Origin: Candidatus Babelota bacterium
GTDB lineage: Bacteria; Babelota; Babeliae; Babelales; Vermiphilaceae
Reading direction: 5' to 3'
Length of the DNA stretch: 64,000 nucleotides
Assembly (NCBI GenBank): GCA_029262555.1
Contig: JAJCZE010000016.1
Location: forward strand, 25,129-89,128
Within the stretch, counting starts at the first letter, position 1. The number at the start of each line of letters is the position of its first letter. The notes beneath the pieces were generated by a model. The model searched no databases and had not been told where the DNA came from. It saw only the letters and a list, made by a program, of their open reading frames with translations. Position numbers and translations under genes: made by a program. Positions 12,983 to 22,445 of the stretch are shown here, piece by piece.

Positions 12983-15091
12983 ATGTTTACTCGTATCATT
13001 TTTCGTAGATTATCGCGCAACATATCCTTTATGTTAATTGGATCGCTCGTATTAAGCACGGTTGGAGCTACATATCCGCAAGATCGTCTAAAAAAAGCAT
13101 TTGGATCAGCTAAAGGGGCTGTTTTTGGTGGGGCTTCAAAACTTGCCTCTACTGCAACCAACCGTATTAAAGGCGGTCTTTCTTCTGCGTTTAATAATGT
13201 AAAACAAATGGATCGTACTGTTGTGATTGATCGATTACAAAAACAAGTCGAAAGCCTTGGGCAAAAGATTGGGTATATGGGCAATTGTATGGCAAAGGGA
13301 ACATGCAGCCAGGCTGAGCGAACCGCTTTTATCGCTACATCTGTAACGGTACTCGCGCTTACTGTTGCAGTAGTAGGAGGAACGCTTTCCGTCGCGGCAA
13401 CGTCAAAAGAGGTTGAATCCGTTACAAGAGTAACTTCGCAAGAGGTACAAGGATGGGGCCCGCAACAAGTATTTCAACGTCTTGCAAACACAACCAATAA
13501 TTTCAAACGCTCTCTTTCTGAACTTAAACAAGGAATGCTCAAAAAAGAGCTTACGCGTGGCCAAAAGAAATTTTTATATGGAGCCGCAATCAGTATTGCA
13601 GCACTCGTAACGATTGCAGTTGGAGCTGTAGTGGCATCATATCTGTATGCGGAAAAAAAAGAATCTGAACAAGAAAAAAAAGACCCTCTCGGTGAGATTC
13701 AAAAATCCGAAGGAGCATTTGGTCAATTTTTCGATCGCATTGTTCGTGTAAAAAAAGAAGGATCAAATTTCTTGCAACAAGCAACACGAGAATTAAACGA
13801 AAAGCTCGAAGAAGCAAACCGTCTTGCAAGGCACGGCTTACAAGCTCAAGCCGACGTTGTCATGAAGCAAGCTAAAACTCAGGCGCAACTCATTGCGTCG
13901 CGCATTAAACAGGGAGGGCCTATACTCATAAAACAAGCTCTTTCGTCTATTTTTGGAATCAGTTATGAGGCACTCGCTTCAGCGCGACAGACATTTGATC
14001 AATCATTGGGTCAAATGACTCCTAAACTTGATAAAATGTGGAAAATCTCAACATGGAACGATATTCAGCGCATACAAACAAAATGGGAAACAATACAAAA
14101 CATGGGATATGCACTATGGGAAAATCTTTCCGGATTTTTATCGCAAATAACTTCTCGATCATGGAATAATATACCGAACTCTCTCTCTCTAGCCGAGGAT
14201 AGAAGAAAGGGAAATCAACGAAAATACAAACCAGAAGACGCAAAAGCATTTAAAGAGAAATATCCACTTGCTTATAAATATGATGCTCTCTTTCCGATAT
14301 ATCAAGATCTTCTTGCGCTTATTGGTAGAACCGATATTCCCGCAGTAGGTGCTGCACTACAAGGCGTACTTGACTCTCTTGGTACAACCTTACAATCTCT
14401 GGCACGTATGCATACTGATGCTGGTGTATGGGGAAAAATTCTCGTCACACAACAAATGATCAATCCATTGAATGCAATCGGTGACCACCTCGAACGCGCC
14501 GCCCTTTATCTGAAACAATTTACAGATGAAAATCCACTTGCCCAACTAGCACAACAACTGCCCGAAGGCCTTGATCGAGAAGCTCTCAAAAAATGGGTAA
14601 CGAGTGTAATTGAGCAACCTATTCCAGTATCGCAAGTAAGAACAATAACCCAGGCACTACTCCCTAAAATACAACAAACCCGTATCGCACTCTTTGAATC
14701 GAAAGACAAGGCGCAAGCGCTTTCAGACACTTTCAGTCAGCACAGCTCACACTTACTTGCTCTTATTGAACAATCAATACTTACACAGTTAAATCGAAAT
14801 CCGGTTGAAAATTATCTCAATGTTGCAAAGCGCGCAGTATTAAAAGAAGCAAAAATCAGCAAAGAGCTCCTTAATGATCTACTTTTTTATATTGCTGCTG
14901 TCGTCAATAATATTGAGAAGCTCATTTCTGCTGGTATCGCAACAATAGAAAACGTCAATGATGCACTTGGAAAAGAGTTTCTTACTGCATCTCATTTAGA
15001 AAAGCTAAAAGCAGCCGCAGCAGAGTTTGATGGCATCAGAAAAAGTCTTATCGAGTTACGGCAAGCTGCAAAAGAAAGCCTTCCACAATAG
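12983..15091 (+). CDS. Hypothetical membrane-associated, helix-rich protein (702 aa), paralogue of the next gene
   Basis: Long ORF with an N-terminal hydrophobic segment and two further predicted TM helices (FIATSVTVLALTVAVVGGTLSVAAT; LYGAAISIAALVTIAVGAVVASYLY). The rest is helix-rich. The C-terminal half aligns with the 15184 protein. Confidence 0.7.
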   Translation: MFTRIIFRRLSRNISFMLIGSLVLSTVGATYPQDRLKKAFGSAKGAVFGGASKLASTATNRIKGGLSSAFNNVKQMDRTVVIDRLQKQVESLGQKIGYMGNCMAKGTCSQAERTAFIATSVTVLALTVAVVGGTLSVAATSKEVESVTRVTSQEVQGWGPQQVFQRLANTTNNFKRSLSELKQGMLKKELTRGQKKFLYGAAISIAALVTIAVGAVVASYLYAEKKESEQEKKDPLGEIQKSEGAFGQFFDRIVRVKKEGSNFLQQATRELNEKLEEANRLARHGLQAQADVVMKQAKTQAQLIASRIKQGGPILIKQALSSIFGISYEALASARQTFDQSLGQMTPKLDKMWKISTWNDIQRIQTKWETIQNMGYALWENLSGFLSQITSRSWNNIPNSLSLAEDRRKGNQRKYKPEDAKAFKEKYPLAYKYDALFPIYQDLLALIGRTDIPAVGAALQGVLDSLGTTLQSLARMHTDAGVWGKILVTQQMINPLNAIGDHLERAALYLKQFTDENPLAQLAQQLPEGLDREALKKWVTSVIEQPIPVSQVRTITQALLPKIQQTRIALFESKDKAQALSDTFSQHSSHLLALIEQSILTQLNRNPVENYLNVAKRAVLKEAKISKELLNDLLFYIAAVVNNIEKLISAGIATIENVNDALGKEFLTASHLEKLKAAAAEFDGIRKSLIELRQAAKESLPQ

Positions 15092-15102
15092 ACGAATATA
15101 AT

Positions 15103-15127
15103 AGGCCCTTGATTATACCAAGGGCCT
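15103..15127 (+). terminator. Possible intrinsic terminator
   Basis: 9-bp stem AGGCCCTTG / CAAGGGCCT with a 7-nt loop, followed by AATTCTT (weak U-tract). Confidence 0.45.
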
Positions 15128-15183
15128 AATTCTTGCGTTCATTCTGAAAAACAATTTAGCGTAAGGCAAAAAAAGGATGAACC

Positions 15184-16671
15184 ATGAAAAAACTCTTTTT
15201 AGCCGCACTATTCCTTTCGTCATCACTTTACGCTCACGATCTTCCTGATCGATTTTTGGGCCAATCAGCAACTGCAATCTGGAACACAATTCACGGAAAT
15301 ATTACCAGTTTTTTTGAACCGGAAGGGGAGGCTCATTCGCCCGCACCTCCCGAAACAATTGAACCATTGAGTGATCCATCACCATTTCAAGTGCTCTTTC
15401 GCCAAACTATCACCTTTACTAACAATGCATCCAATGCGCTCACAAATTTAGCTGCCCACGTGCTTGATGAAGCCAAAGAAAAACTCTACACCGTAGATCA
15501 AGCTGCCGATTATTTTATTCAAAAAATAGAAAATTCCGGATCGACGTTCATGAAAGTAATGCTACAAGAAACACTCGATTTTGATTTAGATCTTCTGATG
15601 CCATCATTTTCAAAAATAAAGCGCCACATACGCCACCTGAGACAAACAGTTCCACGCATGGAGCATGCAGCAGTAGTTGAACAAGTAAATCAACTCATTT
15701 CATACCTCGAGGACATACAAAAAACAGCCGTAACTTTACAAAAAGCAGGCATTGCTACCGTAAGTGCGAAATTAGCGTCCCACGCAATAACCTCAAAAGA
15801 GCACCCTCTCGTTACAGACTTTAATACGCTCTACAACGCATACCCTACAATAATTACCAAATTAAATGAGTTACACATTCCTGCGGCCGGCCATATCGCA
15901 CACCAAGCGTTCAACAGCACTTCCGAGCTCGTTGAGCAAATTGTACTTATGCATGATTCGGCAGGGAAAATTGGATCGGTATTAATTGATGATGCACTCG
16001 TGCATCCACTTGATAGCTTAAAAAACCAAGTGCGTAAATTGGGCAATGCAGCAGAATTTGTAACATCAACGCACCCTCTGATTGTAGTAGCACCCCCAAC
16101 CACCACAGATGCATTACTAGAAATACTCAAAACCTTTATCTGGCGCGATGGCTTTACGCTTAAAGAAACTGCTCAAGAAAAAATTGCTGAGCTCAATTCA
16201 CTCATCCCACCCATTAAAGCGCAAGTAAAACTGCTTAAAAAGCGCCTTCATAACTTTAAATTGGTTATGACAGAATTCCAACCACGATTACACGCTCAAT
16301 TCGTTGCACGATTAAAAGAATCACCGTTAGTCACTATTCCTATCGCACCAAAAATATTATTTGACCTACTAGAACAAGAAATTGAAATAGTAAAAAGTAA
16401 GCTGATAGTAATGATGCGTGCATCTCTTGCGCTTACGTATCGCGTCTCTCGAGTAATTGGTATCGGATCATCACTCCTTGAGTGTATGAATCATTGCATG
16501 GGTGCAACCGATGATCAACCATTTATTCACCATGATATTATTCGCGGAGTCGGCTTTATATCACAAGACACAGTAGGATTTAGCAACATTATCATTAATG
16601 TTACTGAAGCGCTAAAAGAATATAATCCGCTCCCATTTCGCAATGAATTAGAGGAAATAGAGCGTATTTAA
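15184..16671 (+). CDS. Hypothetical secreted protein (495 aa), paralogue of the previous gene
   Basis: AAGGA RBS and a signal-like N-terminus (MKKLFLAALFLSSSLYA). IPAAGHIAHQAFNSTSELVEQIVLMHDSAGKIGSVLIDDALVHPLDSL aligns with IPAVGAALQGVLDSLGTTLQSLARMHTDAGVWGKILVTQQMINPLNAI in the upstream protein. Confidence 0.7.
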   Translation: MKKLFLAALFLSSSLYAHDLPDRFLGQSATAIWNTIHGNITSFFEPEGEAHSPAPPETIEPLSDPSPFQVLFRQTITFTNNASNALTNLAAHVLDEAKEKLYTVDQAADYFIQKIENSGSTFMKVMLQETLDFDLDLLMPSFSKIKRHIRHLRQTVPRMEHAAVVEQVNQLISYLEDIQKTAVTLQKAGIATVSAKLASHAITSKEHPLVTDFNTLYNAYPTIITKLNELHIPAAGHIAHQAFNSTSELVEQIVLMHDSAGKIGSVLIDDALVHPLDSLKNQVRKLGNAAEFVTSTHPLIVVAPPTTTDALLEILKTFIWRDGFTLKETAQEKIAELNSLIPPIKAQVKLLKKRLHNFKLVMTEFQPRLHAQFVARLKESPLVTIPIAPKILFDLLEQEIEIVKSKLIVMMRASLALTYRVSRVIGIGSSLLECMNHCMGATDDQPFIHHDIIRGVGFISQDTVGFSNIIINVTEALKEYNPLPFRNELEEIERI

Positions 16672-17339
16672 AAAAGAGATTTTTTAAGGTGTTCAAGAAC
16701 CTGCACAACGTTCAAATGCGTAGCATCAATCGTTTGCGCCCCGATCGGAATCGTAAGGGGCGCAATTTCTCGAGAAGAATCTCGCGTATCTCTGCTATGA
16801 ATAAATTCTCGCGCATCTGAGATAGTCGTTTGTACGCCTCGATCAAGTTGCTGTTTGTACCAACGATATGCACGCTCATCTTCCGACGCAGTTAAAAAAA
16901 ATTTATGCTCAGCATGGGGAAACACTACTGACCCTGCATCACGCCCATCAATGACTACATCATGATCATTTGCAATTGCACGCTGGAGCTTATCAAGGCG
17001 ATTTCTTACCTGTTGATTAGTGCTCACCAAAGAAGCCCCGTGGCCAATCGTATCACCCTTCAACTGATCCGTGATATCAACACCATCATACGCAATGCGT
17101 TCACGATCACTCGGATCATAAAAATATACAAACTTTTTCGTATCAAGAATCTGATCTACCAACTGCATTTCTGGATCCGCTATGGTTGCAAGCGTGTAGC
17201 CATGATCTTTCATAAGCACATGCGCAAGCGCACGATATAAAAGACCTGTATAGAGATAATAATATTTCAATTCTTTTGCTAAAAGTCGTCCAACTGTGGA
17301 TTTTCCACTTGCTGTTGGGCCATCGATGGTGATAATCAT
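16668..17339 (-). CDS. cmk: Cytidylate kinase
   Basis: P-loop IDGPTASGKST, GRDAGSVVFP and the overall Cmk layout. The start overlaps the recJ stop by 4 nt. Confidence 0.92.
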   Translation of the reverse strand: MIITIDGPTASGKSTVGRLLAKELKYYYLYTGLLYRALAHVLMKDHGYTLATIADPEMQLVDQILDTKKFVYFYDPSDRERIAYDGVDITDQLKGDTIGHGASLVSTNQQVRNRLDKLQRAIANDHDVVIDGRDAGSVVFPHAEHKFFLTASEDERAYRWYKQQLDRGVQTTISDAREFIHSRDTRDSSREIAPLTIPIGAQTIDATHLNVVQVLEHLKKSLF

Positions 17340-19078
17340 AGGTTTGCGCCCTCAAAAGAAAGATCTATGCCTGTTAACTCAATATTAACTCGTCCATTCC
17401 AATGGTTTTCTTGTACATTTGCAGCCAAATTAAATGAATCGCCTTCACGCTCCATCAGTTGCGTATAAAGCTCTGGACGATTGAAAAAAATCACCGGTTT
17501 TATTACGCCATCCGCAAACACCGAACATTTCACATGCAACTCTTTTAAAAGCTTTGGCTTTTGTACCAATACCACATCTGAAATTAAAAAATTTGGCTGT
17601 TTATTATTGCATCCAAATGGCTCTAAGTGCCGTAGATCTTGCATGAATTTTTGAGAAAAATCACTCAGTTTACCCTCAGCGTCAACCACTAATTTTTGCT
17701 GTAAATCTTCTGCTGTTAATGTATCTGAAACAATTTTTTCTAACGATTCTTTAAGGCGTGGAAGGTTACCTTTTTTAATCGCCAAACCTGCCGCTTGAGA
17801 GTGTCCTCCAAATTGCTCAATCCACTCAGAGCTCGCTTGCAGCGCATCAAACATATTAAACTCTGGAATTGATCGGCATGAGCCTTTTAGCATTCCATCT
17901 TTGGTTTCATGAAATAAAATAGTTGGCTTTCCGTATTTACCCACGAATCGAGAAGCTACAAGTCCAATTACTCCCGGAGGCCAATTTTTACTTGAAGCGA
18001 TAATAACGTTTTCATCGATTACATTCACCACTTCAAGATCAATCATCTGCTGCACTTCAGCTATAATCGATCGTTCAATTTCTTTACGCGCTTCATTCAG
18101 TTCAAAAAGCACTTTTCCTACTTGCGTAACCTCATTCTCATCAGAGCCTATTAAAAACTTAACGCCCTGTCGCGGATCTTCAAGGCGGCCCAATGCATTA
18201 ATTTGCGGCGCAATAGAAAAGCCAATATCTAAAGAAGAAACATGCGGCCGAACCACTTTGCCATTTTGCTTTAATGTTTTAAATGCAAAACTTTCCGCAT
18301 TATTCACATATTGCAATCCATGCCGCACCCAAAATCGGTTTTCTCCGAGCAATGGCACTACGTCTGCAACTGTCCCTAATAACAATAACTCATATACTTT
18401 TTGAGGAAGCTCTTTGCCCTTTTGCTCGTATAAAAGCGAAAGTAATTTGAACGAAACACCAACACCCGCAAGCTGTTTAAATGGATAGGTGCACTCATTT
18501 TGATTTGGATTTACAATCGCAAACGCATCAGGAAGTTCAGCATGTTGACGGTGATGATCTGTAATAATTAAATCAACGCCCAACTCTTTTGCTTTCAACG
18601 CCGGATCAAATGCGGTGATTCCATTATCTACGGTAATAATAACTTTGTATCCATTACGCGCAGCGCGCTCTACAATTTTAGTAGATAAGCCATAGCCATC
18701 TTTTACGCGATGCGGAAGATAAAAGTTTACATTTGCGCCAAGCGGCAATAATGACGTCATCATCAACGCTGATGATGTAATGCCGTCAACGTCATAATCA
18801 CCAAAAATTAAAATCGGCTCTTTATTGGCAATCGCATACAAAATTCGATCAACTGATTTTTGCGCATCTTTCAGTAAAGAAGGATGAGCTACATCTTTCT
18901 CTAAAGAACTAAATAAAAAAGAGTTTATCGCATCATGATCGGTATATCCCCGAGATAATAACGTGTGAGCAATCGGCATCGAAATATTGTATGTAGACGC
19001 AATATGCGCAATATGCTGAGAATCTGTTTCTGGAAGCTTCCAGAGATATTTTGAACCAGGAATTGTTTTCATATACAC
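17336..19078 (-). CDS. recJ: Single-stranded-DNA-specific exonuclease RecJ
   Basis: DHH family motifs DYDVDGITS, TVDNGI and ITDHH, plus the DHHA1 motif GGHSQAAG. Confidence 0.92.
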   Translation of the reverse strand: MYMKTIPGSKYLWKLPETDSQHIAHIASTYNISMPIAHTLLSRGYTDHDAINSFLFSSLEKDVAHPSLLKDAQKSVDRILYAIANKEPILIFGDYDVDGITSSALMMTSLLPLGANVNFYLPHRVKDGYGLSTKIVERAARNGYKVIITVDNGITAFDPALKAKELGVDLIITDHHRQHAELPDAFAIVNPNQNECTYPFKQLAGVGVSFKLLSLLYEQKGKELPQKVYELLLLGTVADVVPLLGENRFWVRHGLQYVNNAESFAFKTLKQNGKVVRPHVSSLDIGFSIAPQINALGRLEDPRQGVKFLIGSDENEVTQVGKVLFELNEARKEIERSIIAEVQQMIDLEVVNVIDENVIIASSKNWPPGVIGLVASRFVGKYGKPTILFHETKDGMLKGSCRSIPEFNMFDALQASSEWIEQFGGHSQAAGLAIKKGNLPRLKESLEKIVSDTLTAEDLQQKLVVDAEGKLSDFSQKFMQDLRHLEPFGCNNKQPNFLISDVVLVQKPKLLKELHVKCSVFADGVIKPVIFFNRPELYTQLMEREGDSFNLAANVQENHWNGRVNIELTGIDLSFEGANL

Positions 19079-19129: not shown

Positions 19130-20860
19130 CTAGATTCCAAATTTACCTAGTTTTTGTTTGGCTTGTGTCGCTTTCTTTTTGCCATATTCAAATAATGAAA
19201 TAGCTTTTTCATACAAATCTGGAGTGCCCGCTTTAACAGCAACCTCTTGCCATATTTCTTGCGCATGAGCGCGCACATTACAATCCATGAGTGTTATTAT
19301 TTGATGAGCCAGCGCCACAGTATACTGCCCTGAACGAGGTGCAATCCCCTTAGTAGTGCCACAACACGTTGAAAGATCCAAAGAAAGTAACACTTTCATT
19401 TCAGGAAATTCTTTCTGTTTTTGGAACAGTAATTCCGTATCTTTTACCAACGGAATATATATCACCGTTGGCACAGATGGATCTTTTTCGTTTCTAAAAA
19501 TTGAAACTGCCCTTTCTGCTGCATTCTTGTAAGAAATAGAAGGAAATTTCAGTTTTTTAGAACGTGCATATTTTTCTACCTTTTTTAACTGATTTAAAGA
19601 AGAAACATTTCCAGACGCATCAATAAAAATAAGAATATCGGGCGAACGATCTTTTCGCATTCCACTCACTGGAGGATACGGTAAGTTAAAATCAAGTGCC
19701 GCATCTACCATCTTTAACGTATCAGCATCTTTAAAAGGAGAATGTTTCATCCCTTTCGTAAAGTTAAATACCTGTGCGGATGTAAAACGGGATGTCCCAT
19801 ATCGATTAATCATTGAATCAATAATTGAACGGGCGAGCGAATTCTCAACATCCACAAAGCGCGTATGCTTATAGAGAGTTTTTAAATCTGCTGCAAACGC
19901 AGATCCAAACGTTCCTAAATTAAATCCAAGCGACTTTTCTGGCTTGTATCCTATTGATTTTTTATTCAAAAATGCTCGCCCCAAAGCCCATGATGGAATT
20001 GAAAACCCATTCGTCCCTTTTACTGCTGGCTCAATCGCTACATCCCACGGAGTGTATGCATACCAATAATGTGGAATATTTTGATCAGCACTCACTGCAG
20101 TATAAATAGGAATAGGCATCGCACCAGTATTCATTGCAGCAACTTGCGATGAAAGCTTTTCAGTTTGATTTCCAAATAACACATTTGAAAGCATCCCGCC
20201 AAATAGATCAACCAACGTCACCGGCATATCATACGCCACATTAACCAAAAGCAATGACGATATATCTCCAGCCTCTAAGCGACTCATGCTTGTTACATAT
20301 CTATCCGCAATGCGAGATACAAAGTGCTGAGCATACTGAGTAGCTGAAAGTGATTCTTTGTGTAATGCAGATTGCACCCACGATCCAATTGCCCACGTAG
20401 ATCCAGAAAGAGTACTTTGCCATAAAACAGCATCAAGCAATCCCGATTTTTCAAGCCCAGAAAGAGCTCCCAGCGTTGCTAGAGATGCGCGAAACCCTCC
20501 GCCACTCGCCACGATAGCTATTTTTGGCGCCTTTTTCACTTCACCCAATTTTGACTGCACCGCATTAGTAACGTGTTTCATACGCTGCGCAATCGCCTGC
20601 TTTTCACCAAAAGAAACAGCATTTGAACTTTCAACATGCGCCACTGAAGCGCTATGCAAAGAACTCCACAACTTTGGAAATCGCTTTTTTACTCCATCTT
20701 TAAATGCTTCCTTCATACGAGATGGCGCGCTCTTGAGTGCTTGCCACGTTGTAGGAAACCATCCCTGCTCAGTTTGATTTAAAGGCTCAGCAAGCAAAAA
20801 GGTAACTCCAAAAATAAGCGTGAAAAAAACAAATCGGAATCGAACATTTCGATTATTCAT
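19130..20860 (-). CDS. Secreted cPLA2-like (PLA2_B / lysophospholipase catalytic domain) phospholipase
   Basis: Signal-like N-terminus (FRFVFFTLIFGVTFLLAEP). SGGGFRA oxyanion motif, nucleophile elbow LSGSTW, and an Asp motif VDAALDFNLPYPP. These closely resemble the SGGGFRAM / GLSGSTW / D-x-G-x-x-FNLPYP triad regions of eukaryotic cytosolic phospholipase A2. Confidence 0.8.
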   Translation of the reverse strand: MNNRNVRFRFVFFTLIFGVTFLLAEPLNQTEQGWFPTTWQALKSAPSRMKEAFKDGVKKRFPKLWSSLHSASVAHVESSNAVSFGEKQAIAQRMKHVTNAVQSKLGEVKKAPKIAIVASGGGFRASLATLGALSGLEKSGLLDAVLWQSTLSGSTWAIGSWVQSALHKESLSATQYAQHFVSRIADRYVTSMSRLEAGDISSLLLVNVAYDMPVTLVDLFGGMLSNVLFGNQTEKLSSQVAAMNTGAMPIPIYTAVSADQNIPHYWYAYTPWDVAIEPAVKGTNGFSIPSWALGRAFLNKKSIGYKPEKSLGFNLGTFGSAFAADLKTLYKHTRFVDVENSLARSIIDSMINRYGTSRFTSAQVFNFTKGMKHSPFKDADTLKMVDAALDFNLPYPPVSGMRKDRSPDILIFIDASGNVSSLNQLKKVEKYARSKKLKFPSISYKNAAERAVSIFRNEKDPSVPTVIYIPLVKDTELLFQKQKEFPEMKVLLSLDLSTCCGTTKGIAPRSGQYTVALAHQIITLMDCNVRAHAQEIWQEVAVKAGTPDLYEKAISLFEYGKKKATQAKQKLGKFGI

Positions 20861-20933
20861 AAAGACTCCCTTTTCATATATGGATACACGTTATACAAAA
20901 AGAACACGCACCCACAAGAGAAAAACGATAGGT

Positions 20934-22445
20934 CTATTTTTTCTTTAATGTTGGAAAGAGGATCACGTCCTTAATAGAAGTGGTATTAGTAATGAGCATC
21001 GTTAAGCGATCAATTCCCATGCCGTAGCCAACTGTTGGCGGCATTGCGTGTTCAAGTGCAGTAACATACTCTGCATCGTAATGATGCGCTTCTGCATCCC
21101 CTGCATCTTTTGCAGCAGCTTGTGCCTTGAATCGCTCAGCTTGATCAAATGGATCATTCAACTCATTAAATGCATTGGCCAATTCCATACCCGCAATAAA
21201 CATCTCAAATCGAGATACAAAATCAGGATGTTCTGGATCACGCTTTGCAAGGGGAGAAATCTCTACTGGAAAGTGGGTGATAAATGTTGGCTGAATAAGT
21301 TTTGATTCAACGAGTTGATCAAAGAGCTCAAAAAGCTTTTGCCCCCATGACGCATTATCTACTACTGAAACATCGTGCTTTTTCAATGTTGCATCAATCG
21401 CGTCATCAGCAAGATCAGCATCTGATATGCCCGCATATTTAATAACTGCATCACGCATGGAAATACGCTCAAACGGTTGTGAAAAATCGATCTGATGATC
21501 GCCAAATTGCACGGTCATATCATCATTCACTGCTTTTACAACGCGCTGAATCATCGCTTGGCTAAAATCCATCATCCACTGATAATCTTTATGCGCAATA
21601 TAAATCTCAACCATTGTAAATTCAGGATTATGCCGAGTCGAAATCCCTTCATTTCTAAAGCTTCGATTGATTTCAAATACACGCTCCATACCACCAACTA
21701 CCAATCTTTTCAGGTAGAGCTCTGGTGCAATGCGTAAATAAAAATCGCTACTTAATGCATTATGATGCGTTACAAATGGACGCGCCACAGCCCCACCCGG
21801 AATCGGATGTAGCATCGGCGTCTCCACCTCTATGCACTCATGCTCATTTAAATAATTACGAATTTCACGAATAATTGCAGATCGTTTAATAAAACGTTCA
21901 CGGCTTTCTGCATTACTAATCAGATCAAGATAGCGCTGACGATACTTTGTCTCTACGTCGGCAAGGCCATGAAATTTTTCTGGAAGCGGATGTAATGATT
22001 TTGAAAGTAACGTTACATGCGACGCCTTGAGTGTGATTTCACCCATTTTAGTTTTAAACGAATGCCCTTTTATCCACAAAACATCCCCAACATCTACAAA
22101 ACGATCAAACGTATCAAAAGCCTCATCGCCAAGCATGTCTTTACGTATATAAATTTGAAGCGTTCCTGATGGGTCTTGAATATGGCCAAACATTGTTTTG
22201 CCATGCCCACGTAATGAAACTAAACGACCCGCAATTTCATACTCACGAGACTCTTGATCATCCTTAAACTCATTCTGCACATCTTTTGTAGTCGCATTGA
22301 TTGGCTTGAATTCTGGCCATGCTTTCAGACCAGCTTCTTTCATTGCAGCTACTTTTTCAACGCGGACTTGATGTTCTTCTGATGGAGTTCGTTCCGGAGA
22401 CTGTGAATGCGGTTCGTTTTTTTTCATGGACAATGTACTTTCCAA
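20934..22445 (-). CDS. lysS: Lysine--tRNA ligase (class II)
   Basis: N-terminal OB-fold anticodon-binding domain. Class II motifs FRNEGISTRHNPEFTMVE and GMGIDRLTMLITN. Confidence 0.95.
   Translation of the reverse strand: MESTLSMKKNEPHSQSPERTPSEEHQVRVEKVAAMKEAGLKAWPEFKPINATTKDVQNEFKDDQESREYEIAGRLVSLRGHGKTMFGHIQDPSGTLQIYIRKDMLGDEAFDTFDRFVDVGDVLWIKGHSFKTKMGEITLKASHVTLLSKSLHPLPEKFHGLADVETKYRQRYLDLISNAESRERFIKRSAIIREIRNYLNEHECIEVETPMLHPIPGGAVARPFVTHHNALSSDFYLRIAPELYLKRLVVGGMERVFEINRSFRNEGISTRHNPEFTMVEIYIAHKDYQWMMDFSQAMIQRVVKAVNDDMTVQFGDHQIDFSQPFERISMRDAVIKYAGISDADLADDAIDATLKKHDVSVVDNASWGQKLFELFDQLVESKLIQPTFITHFPVEISPLAKRDPEHPDFVSRFEMFIAGMELANAFNELNDPFDQAERFKAQAAAKDAGDAEAHHYDAEYVTALEHAMPPTVGYGMGIDRLTMLITNTTSIKDVILFPTLKKK

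Follow-up and report, generated by a model that had tools for sequence, protein, structure and literature searches.

Patatin-like proteins (PF01734) such as VipD of Legionella and PlpD and ExoU of Pseudomonas possess a Ser/Asp dyad, belong to the wider FabD/lysophospholipase-like fold class and are used by these bacteria on host membranes. Another Pfam family, PLA2_B (PF01735), which includes the cytosolic phospholipases A2 (cPLA2) of vertebrates, is to our knowledge overwhelmingly eukaryotic, and its fungal members, the phospholipase B/lysophospholipases, are secreted by means of an N-terminal signal and are devoid of a C2 domain. The Dependentiae (TM6), on the other side of the host-parasite relationship, are widespread obligate parasites of protists. 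This report discusses a PF01735 gene in a 64,000-nucleotide stretch of DNA from Candidatus Babelota bacterium (assembly GCA_029262555.1, contig JAJCZE010000016.1, positions 25,129 to 89,128), hereafter the window. The gene occupies window positions 19130-20860 on the minus strand, as do all the features of the gene described below, and is an uninterrupted open reading frame (ORF) of 576 codons (576 amino acids, stop codon included in the coordinates), as judged from the ORF list and the translation. An earlier note on this DNA had read it as a secreted cPLA2-like phospholipase, and both the ORF and the three motifs on which that note relied are found where it had put them. Judged from sequence, the gene most likely encodes a catalytically intact acyl hydrolase of the cPLA2/lysophospholipase family, that is, a phospholipase A and/or lysophospholipase, and it belongs to a family that is old in this phylum, has been inherited vertically and is expanding, and is no isolated capture.

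The assignment to the cPLA2/PLA2_B family is based on a profile search, on sequence comparison and on the predicted fold, which agree with one another and with the earlier proposal. In Pfam the only match of the protein is PF01735, with 58.4 bits against a gathering score of 23 (expectation value, E, 6e-16), covering the catalytic core at residues 114-436 (19553-20521), and the same profile is matched by all 36 homologues of the alignment used here (A1, 32-92% identity). Neither the patatin profile PF01734 (at E <= 1) nor the C2 profiles PF00168 and PF18695 gave a match in Pfam, and NCBIfam was also without a match for this protein. A phmmer search against solved structures retrieved human cPLA2-alpha (1cjy) at E 1.1e-23 in two collinear stretches, with the motifs falling on the cPLA2 catalytic blocks, and cPLA2-delta at E 2.7e-19; further matches were noise.

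The catalytic residues are conserved in position, being aligned to those of cPLA2-alpha and invariant in the 36 homologues (S119, G120, G121, G122, R124, L151, S152, G153, W156, D386 and L393-Y395), so that this part of the earlier proposal stands. The SGGGFRA loop (residues 119-125, 20486-20506) lies on GSGGGFRA of 1cjy, contains the oxyanion-hole glycines and is invariant except for F123 and A125; its Arg124 aligns with Arg200 of cPLA2-alpha, whose own Gly-rich oxyanion loop includes G197, G198 and the phosphate-binding R200. In the LSGSTW motif (residues 151-156, 20393-20410, read from the sequence), Ser154 varies among the homologues and Ser152 is invariant, and because of this the first serine, Ser152 (codon 20405-20407, in the context T-L-S-G-S), is the predicted nucleophile; it lies on the GLSGS serine of 1cjy (Ser228). 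The earlier placing of the nucleophile in LSGSTW is thus right as to the motif, the precise residue being its first serine. Where GLSGS has Gly, at the second position before the nucleophile, the window protein has Thr. The Asp block, VDAALDFNLPYPP, was read at residues 385-397 (19670-19708). Query residues 381-386 align with 544-549 of the 1cjy chain, and therefore Asp386 (codon 19703-19705), the second member of the dyad, corresponds to Asp549 of cPLA2-alpha; the D-A-A context is the same in cPLA2-delta. With fair confidence, the enzyme would be an acyl hydrolase of phospholipids that uses a Ser152/Asp386 dyad, and Arg124 would be the ligand of the head-group phosphate.

An AlphaFold2 model built on the 36-homologue alignment gave a predicted local distance difference test score (pLDDT) of 88 and a predicted template modelling score (pTM) of 0.86. 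When this model was compared with the Protein Data Bank by Foldseek, the top matches were cPLA2-delta (5iz5) and cPLA2-alpha (1cjy), with E of 1e-24 and template modelling (TM) scores of 0.66-0.69 on the query, and the next ones were of the patatin type (PlpD, VipD, CapE/CapV, ExoU and patatin), with E of at least 6e-4 and TM scores of 0.2-0.3. This gap, together with the absence of a PF01734 match, bears out the view that the protein has the cPLA2 version of the fold and is distinct from the patatin-like lipases usual in bacteria. The cap is shortened: residues 325-380 (19721-19888), seen as the gap between the aligned stretches (query 324/381 versus chain 399/544), amount to 56 residues versus about 144 in cPLA2-alpha, and large gaps occur at the cap versus mouse cPLA2-zeta as well. 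This segment is also the least confident part of the model core, with pLDDT of 66-85 in the blocks of residues 321-360. At the two ends, residues 1-85 form a signal helix and short helices, and residues 547-576 (19133-19222) are composed of a terminal helix (547-574 in the model) and a Lys-rich tail, GKKKATQAKQKLGKFGI. The tail (residues 559-576, 19133-19186) is not conserved in the family, and the consensus of the alignment has no majority residue at the C-terminal end.

The N-terminus resembles a signal peptide, in accordance with the export signal claimed earlier. Residues 5-28 (MNNRNVRFRFVFFTLIFGVTFLLA/EP) form the only strongly hydrophobic segment of the protein (Kyte-Doolittle > 1.5), and codons 1-24 (20789-20860) show, by a rule-of-thumb reading, a basic n-region (R4, R7 and R9), a 15-residue core (F10-A24) followed by LLA/EP, and no lipobox Cys. 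By a hydrophobicity rule, a signal-like N-terminus is present in 33 of the 36 database homologues and in 62 of the 75 full-length copies taken from the genomic loci, and for several relatives without it the start seems to have been mis-called. In addition, column counts on the alignment show that Cys499, which with Cys500 forms a CC pair (19361-19366), is 97% conserved. The second Cys column is 72% conserved, and most relatives have C-x5/6-C where the window protein has CC instead. To judge from these columns, the conserved Cys position would be in keeping with an extracytoplasmic location and a disulfide bond.

The genomic setting tells more about the history of the gene. In the window the order is sod-lysS-lipase-recJ-cmk, with the lipase gene on the same strand as lysS (20934-22445, the conserved upstream neighbour) and recJ (17336-19078, the conserved downstream neighbour), both recognized by tblastn and Pfam among the neighbours in relatives as well, and separated from them by gaps of 73 bp and 51 bp, respectively; cmk (16668-17339, from the window gene order) overlaps the end of recJ by 4 nt. 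A scan of one genome per prokaryote species with family-specific peptide patterns, which is uninformative on other phyla, gave 55 loci, all titled Dependentiae, Babeliales, TM6 or generic "uncultured", and every named homologue likewise comes from Dependentiae, TM6 or Babeliales. The block sod-lysS-[1-3 lipase genes]-recJ-cmk on one strand was present in 32 of the 55 loci (lysS upstream in 30, and 2 more with recJ downstream), and the two closest orthologues (L056 and L057, 92% and 75% identity) show the same single-copy gene order as the window, down to the two large exported proteins encoded beyond cmk. When 77 Dependentiae copies were placed in a maximum-likelihood tree, with pieces of human cPLA2 as the root, the copies at lysS-recJ were spread through the crown, and the deep branch L052 is also at this site. 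Ancestrally, the space between lysS and recJ is the seat of a large lipase family of the Dependentiae, whose members often form tandem arrays there. Consequently, the earlier statement that the gene stands alone between recJ and lysS is true of the window genome, and no second copy or paralogue was found by tblastn within the 64-kb window, but it does not serve as a general picture.

The size of the family is indicated by an exhaustive HMMER search of 1.84 billion representatives, which gave 1525 clusters (at 50% identity) at E <= 1e-3 and 526 at E <= 1e-30. The ratio of nonsynonymous to synonymous substitution rates (dN/dS) of the lipase gene is 0.11 versus the 92% orthologue and 0.13 versus the 75% orthologue, and those of its neighbours are 0.05 (lysS), 0.04 (recJ) and 0.14 (cmk). 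Therefore, the lipase is under purifying selection and functional, while evolving 2-3 times faster than lysS and recJ. Some automatic annotations already name relatives "phospholipase A2", and no paper describing the bacterial PF01735 family of Dependentiae was found in the literature searched. The kind of enzyme is well known, and the window gene is an ordinary member, of short form and single copy. Taken as a whole, the bacterial family seems not to have been described in that literature.

About half of the family carries an additional module. It consists of about 100 residues after the signal, has the motif ITVHNxTxxDLYVAxYY and was found in 39 of the 77 copies; it is absent from the window protein, which is the short form, and from every ORF of the window, and it had no Pfam match even at E <= 10. 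In the model of one long form, P0047 (strain Noda2021, L004:4656-6557), the module is a confident all-beta domain at residues 19-119. The Foldseek alignment of this long form to 1cjy spans 678 columns, up from 524, with a better E of 7e-34 (alignment ranges not reported), and the longer alignment is compatible with a beta-sandwich plus catalytic domain, collinear with the C2 plus catalytic arrangement, homology to C2 not being implied. As side observations on the module, its weak fold matches are membrane-binding beta-sandwiches (cytolysin domain 4, equinatoxin and PUD-1), and it also occurs in a non-lipase ORF of 492 residues that adjoins a lipase gene (L009:6579-8057).

It is a natural question whether the gene was taken from a host. 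The earlier note had suggested phylogeny as a check for eukaryote-to-bacterium transfer, and a recent capture of a eukaryotic cPLA2 as a one-off effector would be in line with the mostly eukaryotic distribution of PF01735 mentioned above and with the human origin of the best solved-structure matches. Such a recent event is, however, refuted: identity to vertebrate cPLA2 is only 22-26%, the guanine plus cytosine content of the gene (0.37-0.44) is the same as that of its flanks, gene order is unchanged in the orthologues with 92% and 75% identity, and 32 of 55 Dependentiae loci, some of them from deep lineages, have the gene at this very site. As the lysS-recJ gap is the ancestral home of the family, recent transfer is excluded, and we regard this reading as highly improbable. 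An ancient transfer is a different matter. A deep member of the family (L055) retrieves vertebrate cPLA2 zeta, epsilon and beta at E 1e-31 to 1e-20 and also Trametes lysophospholipase-like proteins. In a transfer tree whose eukaryotes are vertebrates and one fungal genus, with no protist sequences, rooting on the fungi groups the vertebrates with the deep trio L050, L053 and L055 (Shimodaira-Hasegawa-like approximate likelihood ratio test 93), and in an approximately unbiased test on a 46-row subset a single Dependentiae clade was not rejected (p 0.318), so that an ancient event could have gone in either direction. More boldly, an ancient transfer may connect the Dependentiae enzymes with the catalytic domain of animal cPLA2, and it could have run from bacterium to eukaryote. 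As for viruses, no relatives were found in a scan of IMG/VR with the family patterns, and a BFVD fold search gave only weak patatin-like giant-virus proteins and no sign of a giant-virus link.

What the enzyme does for the bacterium can be approached from the biology of the phylum. TM6/Dependentiae are reported neither to make nor to degrade fatty acids, the way in which they acquire host lipids being stated as unknown, and to conserve a type II secretion system (PMC4776705). In Chromulinavorax 44% of the coding sequences have signal peptides, it is proposed that the host is degraded by hydrolases which the bacterium exports, and phospholipid import systems are reported (PMC6561590); neither of the two papers mentions any lipase. 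Because the organism belongs to the Dependentiae, obligate protist parasites reported to lack fatty-acid synthesis, host phospholipids are the most likely substrates. In the proposed mechanism, the lipase would be exported from the bacterial cytoplasm by Sec by means of a cleavable N-terminal signal peptide, possibly crossing the outer membrane by the type II system, and the Ser152/Asp386 dyad would then attack an ester bond of a glycerophospholipid, with the backbone of Gly121/Gly122 forming the oxyanion hole and Arg124 holding the phosphate head group. The outcome would be fatty acids and lysolipids freed from host phospholipids for uptake, and a weakening of the membranes of the host vacuole or cell. 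The reading we favour and consider probable is that of an acyl hydrolase of the Ser/Asp type, exported by Sec and active on host phospholipids, although we infer its activity, signal cleavage, passage across the outer membrane, location and substrate; a role as an effector is plausible.

Several points weigh against this reading. The Thr at position -2 of the nucleophile departs from GLSGS, the signal peptides were judged by a hydrophobicity rule and not by a trained predictor, and the N-terminus of the window protein might be an uncleaved membrane anchor instead of a cleaved signal. Hydrolysis is not assured either, since some members of the cPLA2 family act mainly as transacylases or N-acyltransferases. 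Moreover, the gene lies inside a housekeeping gene string, which would also suit a housekeeping envelope role, and in a run search the sequence was found only in DNA metagenome runs (biofilm).

A Sec signal alone takes a protein to the periplasm only, and the lipase might work there as a housekeeping enzyme remodelling or recycling the bacterium's own (imported) phospholipids, for instance by trimming host-type acyl chains or clearing mislocalised outer-membrane phospholipid, with no attack on host membranes. Its core syntenic position across the phylum would fit such a task, as would the phospholipid import systems of Chromulinavorax and the co-directional arrangement between lysS and recJ/cmk, with short gaps and, in a promoter/terminator scan, no terminator-like site and no consensus promoter around the gene. 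We nevertheless think this periplasmic role unlikely, because the repeated tandem duplication, the fast divergence (52% identity between the copies of locus L001, and dN/dS 2-3 times that of the neighbours) and the extra N-terminal beta-sandwich module in half of the copies are patterns commoner in host-interaction proteins than in a single housekeeping enzyme. Instead of hydrolysing, the enzyme might, like some animal group IV enzymes, use the same Ser/Asp chemistry mainly for acyl transfer, with host phospholipid as the donor and a lysolipid or an amine head group as the acceptor, and so build bacterial lipids: cPLA2-gamma has transacylase activity and cPLA2-epsilon N-acyltransferase activity, and the closest vertebrate matches of the deep family member are the zeta, epsilon and beta forms. 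The organisms are reported to be unable to make fatty acids (PMC4776705), which would also suit an acyltransferase. Transfer and hydrolysis, however, look alike in sequence, and export and family expansion lend transfer no specific support, so that we hold a transacylase to be a rather slim prospect.

The substitution at position -2 and the truncated cap might also be taken to mean that the protein is an inactive relic or a lipid-binding pseudo-enzyme; yet the catalytic residues are invariant, the gene is under purifying selection, the model is confident, and position -2 has no majority residue in the consensus of the 36 homologues, all of which makes this very unlikely. Weak Foldseek matches to CapE/CapV (E 2e-3 and weaker, TM about 0.3) recall the phospholipase effectors of cyclic-oligonucleotide-based anti-phage signalling systems (CBASS), but the match to the cPLA2 fold is far better, the N-terminus is signal peptide-like, and the adjoining genes are lysS and recJ, with no cyclase or other defence gene. 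Since PADLOC gave no match for the protein, an anti-phage defence phospholipase was dropped as hardly credible.

A large, conserved lipase family of the core genome, exported if the favoured reading is true, is a testable candidate for host-lipid acquisition, vacuole escape or host lysis. A broader proposal, which we put forward tentatively and with more doubt than belief, is that the family, already settled between lysS and recJ when the sampled Dependentiae began to radiate and repeatedly duplicated there, may be the missing system for harvesting host lipids, in which exported cPLA2-type enzymes would strip acyl chains from the phospholipids of the host to feed bacteria unable to make fatty acids. 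Furthermore, although the cPLA2-type catalytic domain is usually regarded as eukaryotic, a deep and diverse branch of it (about 526 clusters) is bacterial, which bears on the origin of animal cPLA2.

Some further features of the locus and of its relatives can be added. A Shine-Dalgarno-like GGGAG (20866-20870, read from the sequence) precedes the ATG at 20860 by 5 nt. On the 3' side of cmk the window encodes two large exported proteins (12983-16671; 495 and 702 residues) to which no function is assigned and for which no Pfam match is on record, and the same two proteins are at the same position in the 75%-identity relative (L057:7528-11069; 495 and 736 residues, the latter running past the locus end). 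In the tree, the two tandem copies of L001, the closest relative with more than one copy, together form the sister of the window copy (support 100), and therefore the L001 duplication postdates the split. That duplication, which has a period of about 2.68 kb, included the final ~545 bp of lysS as well (L001:1698-2294 and L001:4380-4981), and the lysS fragment has 90-92% DNA identity to the intact gene end, while the lipase copies have only about 71% DNA and 52% protein identity; this would be explained by very rapid divergence of the lipase copies or by gene conversion that keeps the lysS fragment similar. Members of 884-1021 residues, with several hundred extra residues without Pfam match, are found at L053:4158-6905, L055:4380-7445 and L019:3876-6530, and L053 and L055 are the deepest branches, having the top scores against the eukaryote-built Pfam profile (108 bits versus 58 for the window protein). 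The sod-lysS-lipase-recJ-cmk block also occurs in metagenome-assembled genome records titled "uncultured Pseudomonadota bacterium" (L001, L005, L016, L017, L022, L026-L029, L032, L036, L037, L044, L049, L050 and L053), with lysS at 57-73% identity to that of the window, and these titles are probably placeholders or wrong taxonomy.

Compared with the known systems, the window protein differs from VipD, PlpD and ExoU in its route of export, which would depend on a Sec-type signal and not on a type III, IV or V system. The fungal secreted phospholipase B/lysophospholipases (for example, the Trametes "FabD/lysophospholipase-like" proteins) belong to the same Pfam family and resemble it in their lack of C2 and, as far as its signal-like N-terminus goes, in their N-terminal signal, and a deep-branching member of the Dependentiae family has matches to Trametes proteins at E 1e-20; they are, however, eukaryotic glycoproteins, no solved fungal structure was matched, and with a branch of 1.6 changes per column the fungal proteins are more remote in the tree than those of vertebrates. 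With human cPLA2-alpha (group IVA, 1CJY) and cPLA2-delta (group IVD, 5IZ5/5IXC) the window protein has in common the fold of the catalytic domain, the GGG oxyanion loop with its Arg, the Ser in L-S-G-S and the Asp in V-D-x-x-x-x-F-N-L-P-Y-P, despite the low identity given above. In contrast to the human enzymes, which are cytosolic, it is predicted to be exported. The vertebrate relatives carry PF00168 and PF18695, of which the window protein has neither, a signal peptide-like segment and about 60 helical residues standing in the place of C2, and its cap is about 90 residues shorter than that of cPLA2-alpha, with most of the lid and regulatory loop missing. Lacking C2 and much of the cap, the window enzyme should therefore not depend on Ca2+-driven membrane translocation. 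Its nearest counterparts with an additional N-terminal domain are the long forms of the Dependentiae themselves, such as P0047, which share with it 33-49% identity in the catalytic domain, the same lysS-recJ locus and a signal-like N-terminus.

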